IMG/VR virus record: IMGVR_UViG_3300009008_002419
Coordinates: 1-64,000 of that record
Length of the DNA stretch: 64,000 nt
Direction: 5' to 3' (one strand)
Origin: a virus
The position numbers were made by a program, and so were the translations under genes. The notes beneath the pieces were generated by a model. That model did not search any database and was not told where the DNA came from. It was given only the letters and a program-made list of their open reading frames with translations. This document shows positions 33,611 through 41,084 of the stretch, in pieces (position 1 is the first letter of the stretch; the number at the start of each line of letters is the position of its first letter).

Positions 33611-34225
33611 TTAAAATTTAAATGACCACGACGGTAAGTTCCGGTCACCACGTAACCAATTTAATAGCAACTGTGCTGCTATTGTGGCTATAATTCTATT
33701 TCCTAATTGGATACGATTTTCATTAAGTTCCCATTCTAACTGGCAACTTCCTCCATCTTCTGGATTATCTAAATTTAGTGTTTTTAACATTGCTTCGCAA
33801 GTATTTTTTTCGTGTTTTGTGAAAAAAGATACCATGGTGCTTTCAGATCTTAAATCAATCCAGTATGGATCTGTGTCTGCAATTGGATCAGAAATAAGAG
33901 TTTCAAATAGAAGCTGCCTAAAGGCTGTATTATCTACAGCACTCACAACGCAGTCATAACCCGTTATCTCTTTTGCAGTTGTAATCCTTTTTACCATTGG
34001 AGTAAACAAATAGCGAATATTCAAGGATTCCGCTTTTTGTTCTAAAATGTCTTCTTCTGTGAAGTTTTGGTAAGAAAGATTTTTGGTTTCTACGGTGTCA
34101 TCATCAGCAAAAACAAATTCACATCCCGGAAATTGTCCATGCTTTTGTAATTGAAATAAATGTTGGGCAAGCCAACTACCAATACCACCAGCACCTACGA
34201 TTAATATGTCTCTATTATTCGCCAT
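33611..34225 (-). CDS. ThiF/E1-like adenylating enzyme
   Basis: VGAGGIG, D.D.VE.KNL..Q, KAE, SAVDN..FR, candidate catalytic GSC. Confidence 0.9.
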   Translation of the reverse strand: MANNRDILIVGAGGIGSWLAQHLFQLQKHGQFPGCEFVFADDDTVETKNLSYQNFTEEDILEQKAESLNIRYLFTPMVKRITTAKEITGYDCVVSAVDNTAFRQLLFETLISDPIADTDPYWIDLRSESTMVSFFTKHEKNTCEAMLKTLNLDNPEDGGSCQLEWELNENRIQLGNRIIATIAAQLLLNWLRGDRNLPSWSFKF

Positions 34226-34670
34226 TTAGTACACGTACCTCAGTAATGTGTTCCCACTCTCGGTTGTCTTCATCTCCGTCCCAATAGTAGAAAGCTAGGT
34301 TATTAAATTTTGGTGAATAGATGATGTAAATTCCTTTATATCCAGCTCCGTTATGATCTGTCATAGACGGGATTGGTAGATTATTTGGATGTGTATGAAA
34401 GATGCCTATAAAGTCTTTATCCGCTGATTTCTTCACTAATCTGGTGTCTTTAATGATTTGAAAGAATTCAGTCGGATCAGGCATATAATGAACAACAGCC
34501 ATATCACCAGGAGTGATATTAGTTGTTGGTGTAAACTCTTTAATCTCCCATTCATCGCCTTGTTGGCCAGTAAGCACTCCACAGACTTCTACTGTGGAGT
34601 GCTCATCGCCATAATCTGCAAGTTGCTGTAATAAAGAATTCTCTACAGCTACTTTCATTCTAACCCCCAA
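34215..34670 (-). CDS. JAB/MPN+ (JAMM) metalloprotease
   Basis: EVCGVL and FHTHP......SMTD (HxHx7Sx2D). Confidence 0.92.
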   Translation of the reverse strand: MGVRMKVAVENSLLQQLADYGDEHSTVEVCGVLTGQQGDEWEIKEFTPTTNITPGDMAVVHYMPDPTEFFQIIKDTRLVKKSADKDFIGIFHTHPNNLPIPSMTDHNGAGYKGIYIIYSPKFNNLAFYYWDGDEDNREWEHITEVRVLNGE

Positions 34671-34899
34671 CGAGGGCGTTAGTTAATGTAAGATCTTCTG
34701 CTTCAATTAATTCGTCAACTGTTACATCCTGAGGATTTCTGTTGACGCCATCAATGTAAAGCCACTTATTCTGTTTGTCACACCGCTCGGTGATTTCTGC
34801 TAATGCTTGACCAGCAGGAACTTCAATTTCATCGTGACCCGCAGTTGATACTACATTTAACTGTACTTTAGTAAATCTTTTATCTTTGTCAATTGCCAT
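34660..34899 (-). CDS. Ubiquitin-like (beta-grasp) protein ending in Gly-Gly
   Basis: 79 aa; WLYIDG; C-terminus LTLTNALVGG; adjacent to JAB and E1; TAAGGA RBS. Confidence 0.8.
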   Translation of the reverse strand: MAIDKDKRFTKVQLNVVSTAGHDEIEVPAGQALAEITERCDKQNKWLYIDGVNRNPQDVTVDELIEAEDLTLTNALVGG

Positions 34900-34932
34900 T
34901 TAAATCCTTAATTATTAATAATTTGTATTACC

Positions 34933-37197
34933 TTATTTGTTCAAGGTATTAATTTGAGTTGCAACTTTTTCATCGTTATGGAGCGCGAAGATTCGGTTAA
35001 CGATCTTATCTTTGCCAACCTGCGCAGTGGATTTATCAACGATACAAATATAGCTACCGGTATTATAATCATAGACTCCACAACGGTTTGTATGGGCATC
35101 ATTGTTTTCAAGCTCTAAGAAATAGGTACCCTTTTTGCCGTCAATCTTATACCCTGTTCTCGTACTTCCACCAATCTGAGAAGTTTCAAGTTCAAGATTG
35201 AACATTTTAACAGTTTTGTTTAGAAGCTCTTCGCTCTTAGCGACTGCATTCTTAAAGGTTTCTGTAGCTTTTTCAATGATTCCTTTCATATCTTTGAGAT
35301 CAATGCCTTCAACAATATCTTCATTTAATAAGAGCTCAACCATATCAATTAAATTATTTTTATTTTCTATAGACAGAAAGCGATTAATAGCTTTAATAGT
35401 ATAGTTGTTTTTATTAATGACGACAGTGTTTTTCCCATCTTTCTTTTCCAGCAAGAATTTAATCTTTAGTTGTTTATTCTGGAGTTCATCAAAGATGGTT
35501 GCATCAACACCTAACTCGAGATATGAGTGTATTCGTAAAGAACACTTTTTTACTTCTTTTAAGAAGTAATCATAGTCTGTCTGATTTTGATAGCAGACAG
35601 CCCTTTCTAAACACTCTTGAACTTCACCTTTATTAATTCGGTGACCATTAATACGGTATGTAGTAACATAGTGTCCACGAGCATTTTGCTTTTCAACATG
35701 TTCAACCTTAAATTTAACAGAGCCTAATGTTCCCGCAATAGTACCATTGTGCTTGGCCATTATGTGAGAAATAAAGCCTGTCATAATATGATCAAAGTTA
35801 ACATGTTTAATATCACGAACTTCAGAAGCTCGTGTTAATAAATTTGAAAGCCACGTTTTTTCATTGCCCTCTGAAAAAGACAACTCTTCAGTTTCATATT
35901 TAACAGAGTCGGCAGTGATTACCATGTCGTTAAATTTGATTTCGCCTTTTTGTTCGGTCAAGTTTTTAAATAGTGTCTTTGCTTTTTTCTTAAGCTTCTC
36001 ACTAGCAACAGCTTCTTGCTTTTGTAGTGCCGCTTTTCTTAGCTCTCTATTTGTAATTCTATCAATAGAGTCATTATCGATTAGTACTACTTGTTCTTTT
36101 CTACCAAGTACAAATTCATTAAGTAAGTTGGCCGAGATTGTTTTGGGATCTTCGAGTTCAATGAACATCCCCACATTGTTTGCTAACTGACCCAAAGCAT
36201 TTGTACTAAATCTGTACATAAGTCTGCCTACGTCTAAATAGTCATAAAGATCAGGGTGATCTGCTTGAGTAAAAGAAGCTACTTTCCAGACCATTCCTGA
36301 AGTATCAGCATTATCATAACGCCTTGAGTAGGGATCTGATTCAAACGAGCCCGAAACAATAGTTCGTGTATTATCAAATTCTGCGACTAAGCCAATAACA
36401 GAATAAGTTGAGCTAGTTGCTATAATTTTAGCTACTGACGCATTCTCTACTTTTCCGCCATTAAGCTCTACTAAAGTTGTTTTACATTCAGGATGAAGTA
36501 ACTCAATAAAAGTTTTATACAACTCTAAGTGTGATGTTGTTTTTTCACTTGTTGGGTATAGTTGGAATGCTTTAGTATCAAAAAAGAAATTTTTATTATC
36601 AGTTATGTATTTTTTAAGCTTATCTAATAATCCATCTGATGTATTTGCAGTTGCTTCTAAGGGCGGAACTAGATTTAGAAAAGTTAGCCCCCCACTGTAA
36701 GTTTTCCCACTTACAAAAACCTGACTAAGCGTTTTTAACTCATTTAAGAATGTTTCAGTAAATTTTTTAAAGTTAATCTTTATTAATACTGAGTTTACTT
36801 GTACATCTTTATCGTTAGATTTCCCAATATGAAAGGTATCTAAAAATTGATTGATTGTGGGAGAATGTCCTTTAGCCCTTACATTATTTGCAAAGAAATA
36901 GTGGCCTTCACCTTCTGCAATATGTTTATCTAAAAACGTTTTATTTTCTGGAGATATACCTTCAAGAGCTACACCAAAAAAGTTGGTCGCTCCTTGATGA
37001 TATCTGTTATATAAAGGATTTATAACTAACAATAGTTTTGGTGATCTGTATAAATATACAAATCCTTGGTAGCCAAGTCGTTGGCCCGCTTTTGTAACAC
37101 GCTCTTTGATTTTAGGTAATTGTTTAATGATTTCATCAGACAATCCAAAATCATAGATAGCGTTAAATGCTTCTAGGTTTTTTTCAGAGATATTCAT
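34933..37197 (-). CDS. Large hypothetical protein of the Ubl operon
   Basis: 754 aa; C-terminal G.YICIVD Cys motif; AAGGA RBS. Confidence 0.6.
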   Translation of the reverse strand: MNISEKNLEAFNAIYDFGLSDEIIKQLPKIKERVTKAGQRLGYQGFVYLYRSPKLLLVINPLYNRYHQGATNFFGVALEGISPENKTFLDKHIAEGEGHYFFANNVRAKGHSPTINQFLDTFHIGKSNDKDVQVNSVLIKINFKKFTETFLNELKTLSQVFVSGKTYSGGLTFLNLVPPLEATANTSDGLLDKLKKYITDNKNFFFDTKAFQLYPTSEKTTSHLELYKTFIELLHPECKTTLVELNGGKVENASVAKIIATSSTYSVIGLVAEFDNTRTIVSGSFESDPYSRRYDNADTSGMVWKVASFTQADHPDLYDYLDVGRLMYRFSTNALGQLANNVGMFIELEDPKTISANLLNEFVLGRKEQVVLIDNDSIDRITNRELRKAALQKQEAVASEKLKKKAKTLFKNLTEQKGEIKFNDMVITADSVKYETEELSFSEGNEKTWLSNLLTRASEVRDIKHVNFDHIMTGFISHIMAKHNGTIAGTLGSVKFKVEHVEKQNARGHYVTTYRINGHRINKGEVQECLERAVCYQNQTDYDYFLKEVKKCSLRIHSYLELGVDATIFDELQNKQLKIKFLLEKKDGKNTVVINKNNYTIKAINRFLSIENKNNLIDMVELLLNEDIVEGIDLKDMKGIIEKATETFKNAVAKSEELLNKTVKMFNLELETSQIGGSTRTGYKIDGKKGTYFLELENNDAHTNRCGVYDYNTGSYICIVDKSTAQVGKDKIVNRIFALHNDEKVATQINTLNK

Positions 37198-37581
37198 TTA
37201 CGTTGAATCCTTTTCTTTAATAGTAGGTCGGCTTGTATTAAAGAAAGGTACGACGTTTTCAGTAAATTTATCACGCTGTGTGTTCAGACATGCTGTAACT
37301 AGATCTTGGATTACATGCACTAATTCAGGTCCTGAATAGTCTTTCGTAACTTTTTGCGCGATTTCCAATGCACTTTCTTCGATATGATCTTGCAAATTCC
37401 AATCACAGAATAAAGCAGGTTTAACTTTATTTGTGGTTTGCATATCTTTTTTGTTAAGTCGTGTGGTAAAGGTTGTCTTTCCACATCGCTTACACGTTGG
37501 GCGGTGGTCTTTAACTTGTGTATTCATAAAGTGCAAATAACCGCAATTAGTACATTTAATAAAACGTGTTCCAGTCTTCAT
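37198..37581 (-). CDS. Zinc-ribbon protein
   Basis: Start reassigned to ATG 37581 after TAGGA; CTNC..CKRC. Confidence 0.65.
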   Translation of the reverse strand: MKTGTRFIKCTNCGYLHFMNTQVKDHRPTCKRCGKTTFTTRLNKKDMQTTNKVKPALFCDWNLQDHIEESALEIAQKVTKDYSGPELVHVIQDLVTACLNTQRDKFTENVVPFFNTSRPTIKEKDST

Positions 37582-37618
37582 TTTGTTCCTAATAAATAAT
37601 ATTATTTTAAAATAAAAT

Positions 37619-37660
37619 AAACCCAACACAAGCCTGAAGAGGGACACCTGTGTTGGGTTT
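37619..37660. terminator. Inverted repeat with U tracts, terminator or attenuator
   Basis: AAACCCAACACA...TGTGTTGGGTTT perfect 12-bp arms. Confidence 0.7.
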
Positions 37661-37706: not shown

Positions 37707-40700
37707 TTATTCTATTGTGCAGGTATCTCCATCACAATACTTTTCACCTTCTGCTTCTGAGCTTATATTAGTAAAATCTATTGGTTTTACCTTTTTAACT
37801 ACTTCGTTATAAGCTTCTTCTGAAATTGCCTCATAGGGTGCTTGCTCATAGCCATGCTCTGCTAAAGGTAGAAATGATACACTTTTCAAACGATCTTCAT
37901 ATAACTCTAAAGCGTTCTGTATATCGTTGGCTTCATTTTCTTTAAATGTAACAGTAACGCTTACTGAATTATCAGACCAGTATTGCTGGTATTTAGCGGC
38001 ATTTTCTAGTTGTTCCCATATTGATACATCATATTTAGATTTTTCAAAATACTTTTCTTTAACAGGAAATTCCACCACTTTTGTTGATCTTCCCGAGTCA
38101 TAGACATCATTCTCAACTTTGTACCCTGCTTTTTCTATTGCTGGAAGTAAAGGATCATTTACAGAAAAGCGGATGCGTCTTATATAAAATTCGGCTTCAG
38201 GATAATGAATTCCTGGGGTAGCTTGTGGCAACAAGCTCACGGAACCACTAGGTTTAACTGTAGTTGTTTTAATACTCTTAGGAATTGCTAACCAGTCAGA
38301 GAATTTCTTATCTAATTCTTGAATATAATTATAACCGTCGTTAGCCCATTGCAACATCGTTCGTCTACCGTGTTTATTGAAAGATTGAATAATACCACTT
38401 TGGCTTAATCCAATACGTCTGTTTTTAAGCATTCTAGCGTTTGTTTCTGGCCAATGGGTGTTTACTAAGGTAACACTCTTTCCGTACAGATATGCGAGTT
38501 TCAGGGTGTGTTTAAAGTCAGCATACGTATCATGTCTATGTGGGAAGGTTTCAACTAAATTGCAAAGTTCGCGATCTTCAAGGGTCTGTTCTCCACAATT
38601 CAAGTTATTGAAATATAACCACTTACGCTTATTATTTCTAGTTTTACCTTCAAAACCACCAATAAAAAAATTATGGAATTCATCTACAGTTCCATTGTAC
38701 ACAACGTCATTACCAACCAATTCGACAGAAACCACTCTGTGATTAAATGTTTCTGCTGCTTCTCTCAAAGATTTCCAGGAAGTAAATGGACTGCTCTTTC
38801 GACTAATTTCTGCACTAACTCCAAATTTTTTACAGGCAGTCTGCCATTCACTTTTTTGTGGAATACGCTTTAGATTAAACTTTAATTCTGTAAATATTTT
38901 AAGCTGTTTTAACCTAAGCTTTTCTCGTTTTTTGTCGTATGTGACTTTCATACCTTTTTTGCGATGTTCAATATGCTGTAAATTTATATTGCTTTGTTTT
39001 ATACTACAAAATTGGCACTGACTTTGCTCTCTTCGTTTGTACTCTAATATTAATCTTTTACTGCATTTTTCACAATTTTTAATGATCTTTACGTGACCAT
39101 CTATGATCTTGCAATTATATCCTTCATTAATCCATTTTTTGTAAGTTCGTACAGTACGTGGATCTAGGTTTGACATGTCTTCAAAATTACATTTTACTGC
39201 AGCCCATTTAGATAGTCCAAGAACTCCTCCTAAATGATCATTCCGCCATTTAGAAAATTGCTCAGGCAGATTGTTGGATTTTGCATATTCTTTCCACTCG
39301 TTGTTAGAAAATCGCCTCTCAATTTTTTTAGTAAGTTTTAATGCGTGCTGTTGTAACTCTTCATTAGTAACACCTGAGTAATTAGAGTTCTTTTCCCCAC
39401 TGCTATTGACAGAGTGCTTTTCTTTGTACCTTGCCCATTTCTCTTCAGACCATTCTGTTTGCGCTCGACGCATAGGATTACTATTTCCTTGCATTGCAAT
39501 TCCGTGTAATTTGTCATGATCTTTTTTTGTCATAATTTCAAGATTTAAAGGTCTATTATCTTCTGTATTAAAATTCTTATGATGAACAACGCACCCTTTT
39601 TTTATTTTAGTATTACTATAGAATTCTGCTATTAGCCTGTGTTCACAATTACTTACAACTCCAGGAGTATTTAACCAAAAATAATTTGCGTTAGGATTAT
39701 TTATTGGTGCTGCGACTTTAGTAGTAACCTTTAAACTATCTCCAACTTTAAGGTTCCTAGTTTCAATATAGTTTCCATCAGTGGTTAAGAACTTATGATT
39801 CTCTGTTACCTTAAGTGTGTTTCCATCATCCAAAGTTATTTTGTAAATAGGTTCGTTTTCTCCAGTAATTCGTGGATTACGCATAGTGCGTATGACTATT
39901 TTTCCTTTGGCATCAAAACAAAATACAGGAACATCTTTACCTTCTTCAGTCAATGTTTTAATTGATACATTACCTCTTCCATCAGCGGTATAAACTAAAG
40001 TATCTCCCGTAATACAAGGGTTTACACCCATACAATAACTGTCATCGTTTAGTTCTCCCATACGTCCATACTTACGAGCATTTTCTAACCACACATACCC
40101 AGGCTCACCTTGTTTAATAGTGTTAGCAACACATTGAGAATAATCCATTCCTACAGTCGCTGAAACAGAGTTATTTGAAGCATATCTATTAAATAAAAGT
40201 TTTTCTTGATCATGTTTTAATTCTAAATATTCGGTATCTAATGGATCACCAAGTGCTAATGAAGCTGAACGTCGTATGTTTCCAGCAATTACACATTTTG
40301 AAATATAAGTTTCAATATCAACAATATCACTCGAAGTTAAAAGTTCGTCTATACGTGAATTGAGTAATGTTTTGATATTTTGATGTAAATCTATTAAAGG
40401 TTGTGGACCACTTGCAGTTCCCCCAAAACCTTTAATAGGTTCTCCGAACGGTCTAATTTTTGAATAGTCAAATTTAGGTATTGACGTTCCTGTAAAATAA
40501 CCATTTAACACTAATCCTACTGACTCTACCCAACCTTCTCTGGAATCTGGAATTTCAAATACTAATCCATTCGTTTCTTTCGGCTCTTTTATTTTTAATT
40601 TATTTGCTCCTAAGGTATCAAACCCTACACCAACTCCTAACATTAAAGCATCGGTTATAAATTCAAAAATTTCACTGCCTCGTTCATTAATCTGTTCTGT

Positions 40701-41084
40701 AGAAGCAAATGCACAATTTAGAAGTCCAGCCCCAGAACGTCCAGTTACATAATCTGTGCCCATCATCCAAAGATTTCTTCCACTTGGAAGAAATTTAAAA
40801 TTCCAGATAGCATCGTACATTGCTTGGGCTGTTCGTTGTGACCTTGGATTATCCCAACGTAACCCATTTTTTGCTACATGTTCTTTTTGAATATTGAATA
40901 CGCCCTCGACTACACGTTTTACTGTTTCCCAGAACTCTTCTGTGGTACCATCTTCTTTACGTCTTGCGTAAGTTCGTTTATAAACTATATAACCAAGCGG
41001 ACCCCATTCAGGTTGCTTATTTTTATAGTTTTCAAGAAACTGATCAGACAGGTAAAATCGTCTATGTGTTGTCGGTTGAACCAA
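37707..41084 (-). CDS. nrdJ: Class II (B12-dependent) monomeric ribonucleoside-triphosphate reductase with intein
   Basis: YKRTYAR, PSGRNLW, NC, GVGVGFD, NP-intein-CGEQ, CNLVE, TVKPSG, C-terminal YCDGDTC. Confidence 0.93.
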   Translation of the reverse strand: MVQPTTHRRFYLSDQFLENYKNKQPEWGPLGYIVYKRTYARRKEDGTTEEFWETVKRVVEGVFNIQKEHVAKNGLRWDNPRSQRTAQAMYDAIWNFKFLPSGRNLWMMGTDYVTGRSGAGLLNCAFASTEQINERGSEIFEFITDALMLGVGVGFDTLGANKLKIKEPKETNGLVFEIPDSREGWVESVGLVLNGYFTGTSIPKFDYSKIRPFGEPIKGFGGTASGPQPLIDLHQNIKTLLNSRIDELLTSSDIVDIETYISKCVIAGNIRRSASLALGDPLDTEYLELKHDQEKLLFNRYASNNSVSATVGMDYSQCVANTIKQGEPGYVWLENARKYGRMGELNDDSYCMGVNPCITGDTLVYTADGRGNVSIKTLTEEGKDVPVFCFDAKGKIVIRTMRNPRITGENEPIYKITLDDGNTLKVTENHKFLTTDGNYIETRNLKVGDSLKVTTKVAAPINNPNANYFWLNTPGVVSNCEHRLIAEFYSNTKIKKGCVVHHKNFNTEDNRPLNLEIMTKKDHDKLHGIAMQGNSNPMRRAQTEWSEEKWARYKEKHSVNSSGEKNSNYSGVTNEELQQHALKLTKKIERRFSNNEWKEYAKSNNLPEQFSKWRNDHLGGVLGLSKWAAVKCNFEDMSNLDPRTVRTYKKWINEGYNCKIIDGHVKIIKNCEKCSKRLILEYKRREQSQCQFCSIKQSNINLQHIEHRKKGMKVTYDKKREKLRLKQLKIFTELKFNLKRIPQKSEWQTACKKFGVSAEISRKSSPFTSWKSLREAAETFNHRVVSVELVGNDVVYNGTVDEFHNFFIGGFEGKTRNNKRKWLYFNNLNCGEQTLEDRELCNLVETFPHRHDTYADFKHTLKLAYLYGKSVTLVNTHWPETNARMLKNRRIGLSQSGIIQSFNKHGRRTMLQWANDGYNYIQELDKKFSDWLAIPKSIKTTTVKPSGSVSLLPQATPGIHYPEAEFYIRRIRFSVNDPLLPAIEKAGYKVENDVYDSGRSTKVVEFPVKEKYFEKSKYDVSIWEQLENAAKYQQYWSDNSVSVTVTFKENEANDIQNALELYEDRLKSVSFLPLAEHGYEQAPYEAISEEAYNEVVKKVKPIDFTNISSEAEGEKYCDGDTCTIE
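38598..40016 (-). mobile_element. Intein (473 aa) with HNH endonuclease in the RNR active-site NPCxE motif
   Basis: CITGDTLV start, block B VTENHKF, EHR..VHHKNFN..DNR..NL, VYNGTVDEFHNF, ends NNLN before C. Confidence 0.92.

Follow-up and report, generated by a model that had tools for sequence, protein, structure and literature searches.

Gene content and conservation of the locus

The stretch of DNA analysed here (the window) covers positions 1-64,000 of a 93.8-kb IMG/VR virus record, IMGVR_UViG_3300009008_002419. It contains a compact set of minus-strand genes predicted to encode a ThiF-type activating enzyme (E1), a JAB/JAMM metallopeptidase (JAB), a ubiquitin-like protein (Ubl) and a large protein of 754 amino acids (aa), named BIG, which bears a predicted domain resembling conjugating enzymes (E2). 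Together with a zinc-ribbon (Zn-ribbon) gene, an earlier note on this DNA had claimed five tightly coupled genes, and all of these open reading frames (ORFs) are present at the positions given below. In the list, short BIG denotes the shorter form of BIG found in a diverged clade of relatives, and AF2 stands for AlphaFold2.

33611-34225, minus strand: E1, ThiF-type, 204 aa (Pfam ThiF, 2.2e-14)
33743-33745, minus strand: E1 Cys161 (in GSCQ), candidate thioester-forming Cys, invariant in the family
34215-34670, minus strand: JAB/JAMM metallopeptidase, 151 aa, predicted Ubl maturase and deconjugase (Prok-JAB, 3.8e-14)
34356-34397, minus strand: JAMM motif HTHPNNLPIPSMTD, of the form HxHx7Sx2D
34660-34899, minus strand: Ubl, 79 aa, ending in LVGG and then the stop codon (read from the sequence; GG invariant in homologues)
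34933-37197, minus strand: BIG, 754 aa, bearing the predicted E2-like domain (profile family and AF2 model)
34936-35298, minus strand: BIG residues ~634-754, predicted UBC/UEV/RWD-like (E2-like) domain (AF2 model)
35044-35046, minus strand: BIG Cys718 (in GSYICIVDK), candidate E2 catalytic Cys (invariant in 141 sequences)
34936-35745, minus strand: BIG residues ~485-754, core common to BIG and short BIG (hhalign, Foldseek BFVD)
35746-37197, minus strand: BIG residues 1-~484, lineage-specific N-terminal region (missing from short BIG)
37198-37647, minus strand: Zn-ribbon protein, 149 aa, with a CxxC...CxxC pattern, co-transcribed neighbour (weak Pfam zinc-ribbon matches)

The E1 and JAB genes overlap by 11 nt, as do the JAB and Ubl genes; a gap of 33 nt separates Ubl from BIG, and the BIG gene abuts the Zn-ribbon gene. 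A promoter and terminator scan of the module gave no signal exceeding the shuffled background. On one side the module is flanked by a ribonucleotide reductase (RNR) gene (37707-41084), and on the other by a holin-like gene, a sigma-70-type factor and a family A DNA polymerase (PolA). The record, which also carries a terminase gene, has a CheckV completeness of ~31%. That a phage should carry a Ubl/E1/JAB set, as the earlier note had it, is supported by the Pfam families, the intact motifs and the viral nature of the contig.

The grouping of these genes is not a matter of chance, because the same genes occur in the same order in ~40 other viral contigs. In a sample of 80 E1-anchored viral loci, whose ORFs were searched with the window proteins and then with family hidden Markov models, the order RNR, BIG, Ubl, JAB, E1, sigma factor, PolA was kept in ~40 loci, on contigs of up to 215 kb. 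BIG always adjoins Ubl, JAB and E1 in the near clade. In the diverged clade, with E1 ~33% identical, the genes are scattered yet present: a Ubl homologue, a short BIG of 400-470 aa ending G-P-I-C-I-D-N...G-D-Q...R...N-D...T, and a JAMM protein (HTHPFGxAYFSGTD) 1-2 kb downstream of E1. Over the whole sample, the E2-like protein and a JAMM-motif protein were each found in 70 out of 80 loci. An independent test used 80 phage loci anchored on a related sigma factor (34-66% identity, ±10 kb). Ten of them contained BIG, Ubl, JAB and E1 together, the other 70 contained none of the four, and there were no partial sets. This all-or-none co-occurrence is strong evidence that the four genes form a functional unit, and it shows that possession of the module is a trait of particular lineages, not of related phages in general.

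The ubiquitin-like protein, its peptidase and its activating enzyme

Ubl terminates in LVGG directly before its stop codon, and the GG is invariant in 34 aligned homologues. Past Arg54 the tag contains neither Lys nor Arg; trypsin would therefore leave a remnant of ~25 residues, and the diGly proteomics proposed in the earlier note would, in its standard form, fail unless the tag were engineered or a different protease used. Among the distinct homologues, 17 stop exactly at GG like the window protein, and 16 extend 1-14 residues past it (GGK, GGN, GGC, GGNAN, GGSDDTLIRLS, GGSCTIDDDDY and others); two carry a 160-196 aa domain fused after GG. In the fused forms (L037:6753-7460 and L040:6674-7495), the GG of Ubl lies at residue 75 or 77 and is followed by the extra domain; a further locus, L039, contains a free-standing 78-aa relative of the L037 fused domain, occupying the position of JAB. 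With its invariant GG and the variable tails or fusions after it, Ubl behaves like a ubiquitin-type precursor. Neither Ubl nor BIG matched any Pfam, PHROG or PADLOC family. The earlier note had named a fold other than beta-grasp as grounds for giving up the idea; in the language-model structure of the ESM Atlas (pLDDT, the predicted local distance difference test, 0.71), Ubl is beta-grasp-like: it resembles clusters of the ThiS, ubiquitin and SUMO kinds, with a template modelling score of 0.70 for the ThiS-family one and of 0.60 for the one named ubiquitin/Rad60-SLD.

The JAMM protease is intact as had been claimed, with a complete HTHPNNLPIPSMTD motif and an upstream Glu in VEVCG. It matched the PADLOC JAB models (Cap3-type) at ~1e-9 to 1e-10 and PHROG 5556, labelled 'tail protein', at 3.9e-10. 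As the window Ubl already ends in GG, JAB had been read as a deconjugase rather than a maturase. The exclusion of a maturase role does not hold for the family, since about half of the distinct Ubl homologues extend past GG, and the presence of 1-14 residues or a whole domain there makes the family JAB very probably a maturase, to judge from the sequences. The deconjugase role, on the other hand, can be kept. In ~15 distinct loci JAB is retained even though GG is already the end of the tag, and all three loci that lack JAB have tags ending exactly in GG, which together point to a second role as deconjugase; JAB would thus probably serve both functions.

E1 shows the ATP-binding features of a ThiF/MoeB-type adenylation domain, including GAGGIG, D41/D43, K64 and D98-N-x3-R103. 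Thirteen positions are invariant in an alignment of 37 family members (A2), namely G11, G13, G14, D41, D43, N49, Q53, K64, D98, R103, D124, R126 and C161, the last of which is located after the adenylation core. The sequence agrees with the earlier description of a Cys in GSCQ and of an enzyme without CxxC zinc pairs. Its glycine loop lies five residues after the start, so that the N-terminal Arg-finger helix is missing, unlike in MoeB, ThiF and eukaryotic E1s, and the NLxRQ of other E1s is replaced by NLSYQ (NLxYQ in the family), with Tyr for the conserved Arg. A profile search of the PDB with E1 recovered the Rossmann half only of every E1 class, led by a ThiF-type protein (9egc, 2.8e-8) and followed by UBA3, UBA2, UBA5, MccB, TcdA, Cap2, ThiF and MoeB. 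The enzyme is a kind of its own among E1s. A word-based search found 129 E1-like proteins of ~195-205 aa with 31-85% identity, and IMG/VR contained 365 confirmed E1 relatives. In a PADLOC scan at E<=0.1, E1 and JAB matched only the E1-E2 and JAB models of the CBASS type (cyclic oligonucleotide-based antiphage signalling systems).

The predicted E2-like domain of BIG and the proposed cascade

A word search with BIG returned three close homologues only, and a profile search retrieved 621 cluster representatives at E<=1e-3. Metagenome and viral scans with BIG, P0001 and P0003 as queries found no contigs of close BIG homologues. With a family alignment of 141 sequences, AF2 gave a model of BIG with a pLDDT of 85.3 and a predicted template modelling score of 0.73; with four sequences the pLDDT was 45, and the ESM Atlas model of BIG was poor. 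In the better model, residues ~634-754 gave repeated structural matches to E2, UEV and RWD folds, among them the bacterial E2 domains of Cap2 and BubB; the Z-scores were modest (4-5). The tail consists of a long helix (634-665), four strands (670-710), a loop holding a Cys, and helices from 729 onwards, an order of elements that agrees with E2. Cys718 is placed between strand 4 and helix 2, the position of the E2 catalytic Cys. Only four residues are invariant in all 141 sequences (D322, Y692, C718 and D742), and Cys718 aligns with the Cys of GPICIDN in short BIG.

Foldseek of the BIG model against the PDB gave no match at E<=0.001, and PDB sequence profile searches with full BIG and with its C-terminal domain gave none either, so the E2 likeness of the tail comes from structure. 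Cap2-like candidates from the genome contigs matched the E1 part of the models only, not the E2 part. A sub-threshold match to Pfam DUF7737 falls on the E2-like domain in 6 out of 31 members; no mention of DUF7737 was found in the literature, and it was absent from the 101 Bacteroidales genomes searched. Taken together, the model indicates with moderate confidence that BIG residues ~634-754 form an E2-like domain, in which Cys718 would act as the catalytic residue. The large protein had been put forward as a 'candidate E2 or substrate', and its C-terminal ~120 residues, with their predicted fold and invariant Cys, lend support to the first half of that suggestion.

The core of BIG is shared with the short form: hhalign (A4 against A7) aligned residues ~485-754 with short BIG at a probability of 98% (E 2.2e-13, 256 columns), and Foldseek against BFVD with the BIG model returned three ~430-aa viral proteins of the short form (E 2e-9 to 7e-7). 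The N-terminal ~484 residues contain the family-conserved R278 and D322; weak matches to mixed alpha/beta folds were seen at 207-330, and no clear ones elsewhere in this region. We can only guess that this part serves in substrate selection or as an E3-like adaptor.

The module may thus be pictured as follows. E1, presumably a homodimer like MoeB and ThiF, would adenylate the C-terminal Gly79 of the tag. The activated tag would then move as a thioester, with E1 Cys161 as the probable intermediary, to the Cys718 of BIG in its UBC-like domain; the large N-terminal part of BIG could act as a built-in substrate selector in placing the tag on a target protein. JAB would expose Gly-Gly in relatives with tailed or fused tags and strip the tag from conjugates. 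We consider it probable, though well short of certain, from the sequences and the AF2 model, that the window encodes such a virus-encoded four-component cascade of E1, E2, Ubl and deubiquitinase. Both the E2-like domain and the finding that the four genes occur together or not at all add weight to conjugation. Several points weigh on the other side. The E2-like domain lacks the HPN motif, and no target or E3 has been identified for the module. As the record is only ~31% complete, partner genes not seen in it may be encoded in the remainder of the genome. Moreover, E1 is unusually small, without the N-terminal Arg finger and with Tyr for the Arg of NLxRQ, and its chemistry may differ for these reasons.

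Tagging could also proceed without an E2, as in archaeal SAMP/UbaA or Thermus TtuB/TtuC, where E1 is sufficient for both activation and transfer of the tag. In that case BIG would be a scaffold or the principal substrate, with a tail that serves as a non-catalytic tag-binding module of the RWD/UEV type. UEV and RWD domains characteristically lack the E2 catalytic Cys. In BIG, however, a Cys is invariant through all 141 sequences and the short form and sits in the E2 catalytic loop, which is hard to explain for pure binding, and we regard this alternative as unlikely.

The tag may instead serve as a sulfur carrier, adenylated by E1 and turned into a thiocarboxylate by sulfur donors of the host, with BIG thiolating a nucleic acid or metabolite and JAB merely trimming precursors, as in QbsE/QbsD or CysO/Mec+. 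The ThiF/MoeB size of E1 fits such a role, as do the ThiS-family as the nearest named Atlas fold cluster of Ubl, the existence of precursor tails needing trimming, and two further conserved Cys in long BIG (C535 and C552). These two, however, are not kept in the short form, unlike the E2-like Cys, which is conserved in both, and JAB persists where there is nothing left to trim from the tag. BIG has no PP-loop or radical-SAM Pfam signature. The earlier remark that no thiamine, molybdenum cofactor or tRNA-thiolation genes are nearby can be extended to the record, in which a search for sulfur-transfer partners was null: rhodanese, cysteine desulfurase, the PP-loop ATPase (ATP_bind_3) and MoaE had no match in the 93.8 kb, and all four were matched in control genomes. 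Sulfur transfer is decidedly improbable on this evidence, and keeps a small share of the probability because host enzymes could supply the sulfur and because the record is incomplete.

Relation to known systems, distribution and possible role

In function, the conjugation cascade proposed here parallels Bil (BilABCD) most closely, with CBASS Cap2/Cap3 and Bub less close. Bil has the same four roles as separate proteins, namely a Gly-ending Ubl, an E2 with a catalytic Cys, a JAB deubiquitinase and an E1, and a few BilA homologues carry short overhangs after Gly (bioRxiv 10.1101/2023.09.04.556158). However, Bil is a host-encoded anti-phage defence, whereas the module lies on a viral contig and has its relatives in IMG/VR contigs. 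BilA has two domains, in contrast to the single-domain Ubl of 79 aa, and the module differs further in that its E1 is a 204-aa minimal ThiF core and its E2-like domain forms the C-terminal end of BIG with its 754 aa. No BilA-D match was obtained for the module proteins in PADLOC at E<=0.1, a library that includes a BilD model. In type II CBASS, Cap2 is an E2-E1 fusion and the 'tag' is the C-terminus of the CD-NTase (cGAS/DncV-like nucleotidyltransferase), while the module has separate genes for E1 and the E2-like protein and a dedicated Ubl. There is no CD-NTase or effector beside the module, and no CD-NTase model was among the PADLOC matches of the five genes. By sequence and architecture, the module belongs to neither Bil nor CBASS. 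Bub operons (Ye et al. 2024, PMC11601596) use oxyester intermediates, lack the catalytic Cys and have a Ser-His protease; in the module, by contrast, E1 and the E2-like domain each contain an invariant Cys, and the protease is a JAMM metalloenzyme.

The sulfur-carrier pairs ThiS/MoaD-ThiF/MoeB, QbsE/QbsD and CysO/Mec+ (Iyer et al. 2006, PMC1779556) resemble the module in their small GG-ending beta-grasp protein, ThiF-sized E1 and extension-trimming JAB. Unlike them, the module has no CxxC zinc pairs and no sulfur donor or acceptor enzymes, and it has an E2-like partner with an invariant Cys. A phage Ubl-JAB pair described in 2006 likewise sets a phage Ubl with a conserved C-terminal Gly beside a JAB peptidase; that pair, however, belongs to the tail gene cluster and tail assembly and lacks E1 and E2, whereas the module lies among replication and transcription genes. 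No published description of a phage E1-E2-Ubl-JAB set was found in the full-text literature, with subscription-only papers outside this coverage. The family is large, with its hundreds of E1 relatives and BIG representatives, and has no annotation in Pfam, PHROGs or PADLOC.

Among 185,579 species genomes, the module is nearly absent except from viral- or mobile-looking contigs. One close E1 copy was found, with the full module, on a 204-kb contig in a Bacteroidales bin, together with a few E1 copies (33-37% identity) from contigs in bins of Methanoperedens, Micrarchaeota and Nanoarchaeia; in three archaeal-bin contigs, BIG lies directly upstream of E1. The Methanoperedens contig (L089; Candidatus Methanoperedens sp. 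BLZ2, NZ_NTMG01000074.1) encodes a BIG of 712 aa, an E1 of 195 aa and a weak Ubl match of 166 aa, and has as neighbours a RadC-like JAB protein, an SNF2 helicase, a Gabija-like pair of OLD-type ATPase and UvrD helicase, and a family B polymerase. The setting, within an archaeal bin, is that of a mobile element or defence island. Among 50,697 phage records, BLAST matched neither the region nor BIG, and E1 gave weak N-terminal matches only. No cultured phage with all four genes was found; a related JAB-E1 pair is all that Salmonella phage Arash and Vibrio phages D69, D148 and D181 have. The nearest cultured phages by terminase, Salmonella phage Arash (L082; OQ632216.1, gp246c-gp247c) and Vibrio phage D69 (L083; OZ195729.1), encode a protein of 356-419 aa with a JAMM motif (HSHNxMxAFFSGTD), followed immediately downstream by a 346-aa protein whose N-terminus is E1-like and which is annotated as 'structural protein' in Arash; no BIG or Ubl homologue was detected beside these two genes.

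As for its biological role, the module could be an accessory, Bil-like immunity cassette of viruses and mobile elements, directed against competing phages and not used for the virus's own infection cycle. This explanation concerns the role and is compatible with the conjugation mechanism. It finds some backing in the presence of the module in just 10 out of 80 phages with a related sigma factor, in the Methanoperedens-bin contig, where BIG and E1 stand beside the Gabija-like pair and the RadC-like JAB, and in the defence role of each of its known bacterial relatives (Bil, CBASS and Bub; PMC10557695, PMC11601596). Typical hot-spot cargo, however, would not be expected to hold a fixed place between RNR and sigma/PolA in ~40 contigs, and no defence model was matched beyond the generic E1 and JAB ones, so that we regard the cassette as rather unlikely. 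With the module located among RNR, sigma factor and PolA genes, action is expected in the infected cell and not in virion assembly. Host takeover, counter-defence and exclusion of rival viruses are guesses at its purpose. It is possible, and we put it forward tentatively, that a virus-specific cascade lineage, with its minimal E1 and its E2 domain set in a large multidomain protein, extends across hundreds of uncultured large phages, occurs on archaeal-bin contigs (Methanoperedens, Micrarchaeota, Nanoarchaeia) as well, and tags host or rival proteins during infection.

The characterised prokaryotic E1/E2/Ubl/JAB systems (CBASS Cap2/Cap3, Bil and Bub) are host operons for which anti-phage immunity has been shown or inferred. 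A complete cascade carried by a virus would reverse this picture and raise the question of what the phage tags and why; protein 'ubiquitination' would then be a weapon of prokaryotic viruses too, and such viruses a possible reservoir in early E2 evolution. At ~200 aa and without Arg finger, zinc site or UFD, the E1 would be the smallest seen with an E2 partner, and together with an E2-like domain that lacks HPN and is fused to a large putative substrate-recognition body, it bears on the evolution of the hand-off from E1 to E2.

Neighbouring genes and insertions

The Zn-ribbon gene had been listed among the tightly coupled genes. Its presence and tight packing are as described; a place in the core of the system, however, does not follow, because among the 80 E1-anchored loci its homologues are confined to the closest contigs (L011-L014), and the protein is probably outside the module core, judging by this distribution. 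The holin-like gene is likewise common to the closest contigs only. In L045 (6320-7186), and at the same position in ~20 loci of the diverged clade, there is a protein of ~280 aa whose zinc ribbon is of the TFIIB type (Pfam Zn_Ribbon_TF, 1.1e-4); it sits with a denV-like pyrimidine-dimer glycosylase between short BIG and E1. The 149-aa protein of the window matches this family weakly (1e-3).

Several relatives have ORFs of 226-273 aa with helix-turn-helix-like stretches between the Ubl and JAB genes (L007:6716-7522, L009:6735-7556, L016:6692-7489, L020:6884-7573, L022:6887-7567 and L025:6749-7528). They show no relationship to the fused domains and little to one another, and they look like mobile, homing-type helix-turn-helix genes splitting the module; they were rejected as parts of the system.

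The flanking genes also vary within the lineage. The RNR ORF of the window (37707-41084, minus strand) encodes 1125 aa, compared with 653-707 aa in relatives, or 993 aa in L004-L006. Its extra middle part starts with C-I-T-G-D-T-L-V, contains an HNH-like stretch and ends with H-N-F...N-C. In these features it resembles an intein with a homing endonuclease, which some of the lineage's phages have and others lack. The family A DNA polymerase is one ORF of 589 aa in the window and two or three separate ORFs in many relatives (L007, L011-L014, L016, L021, L023, L029 and L032, in the PolA region downstream of sigma), which points to split genes or to the insertion of inteins or homing genes within the lineage.

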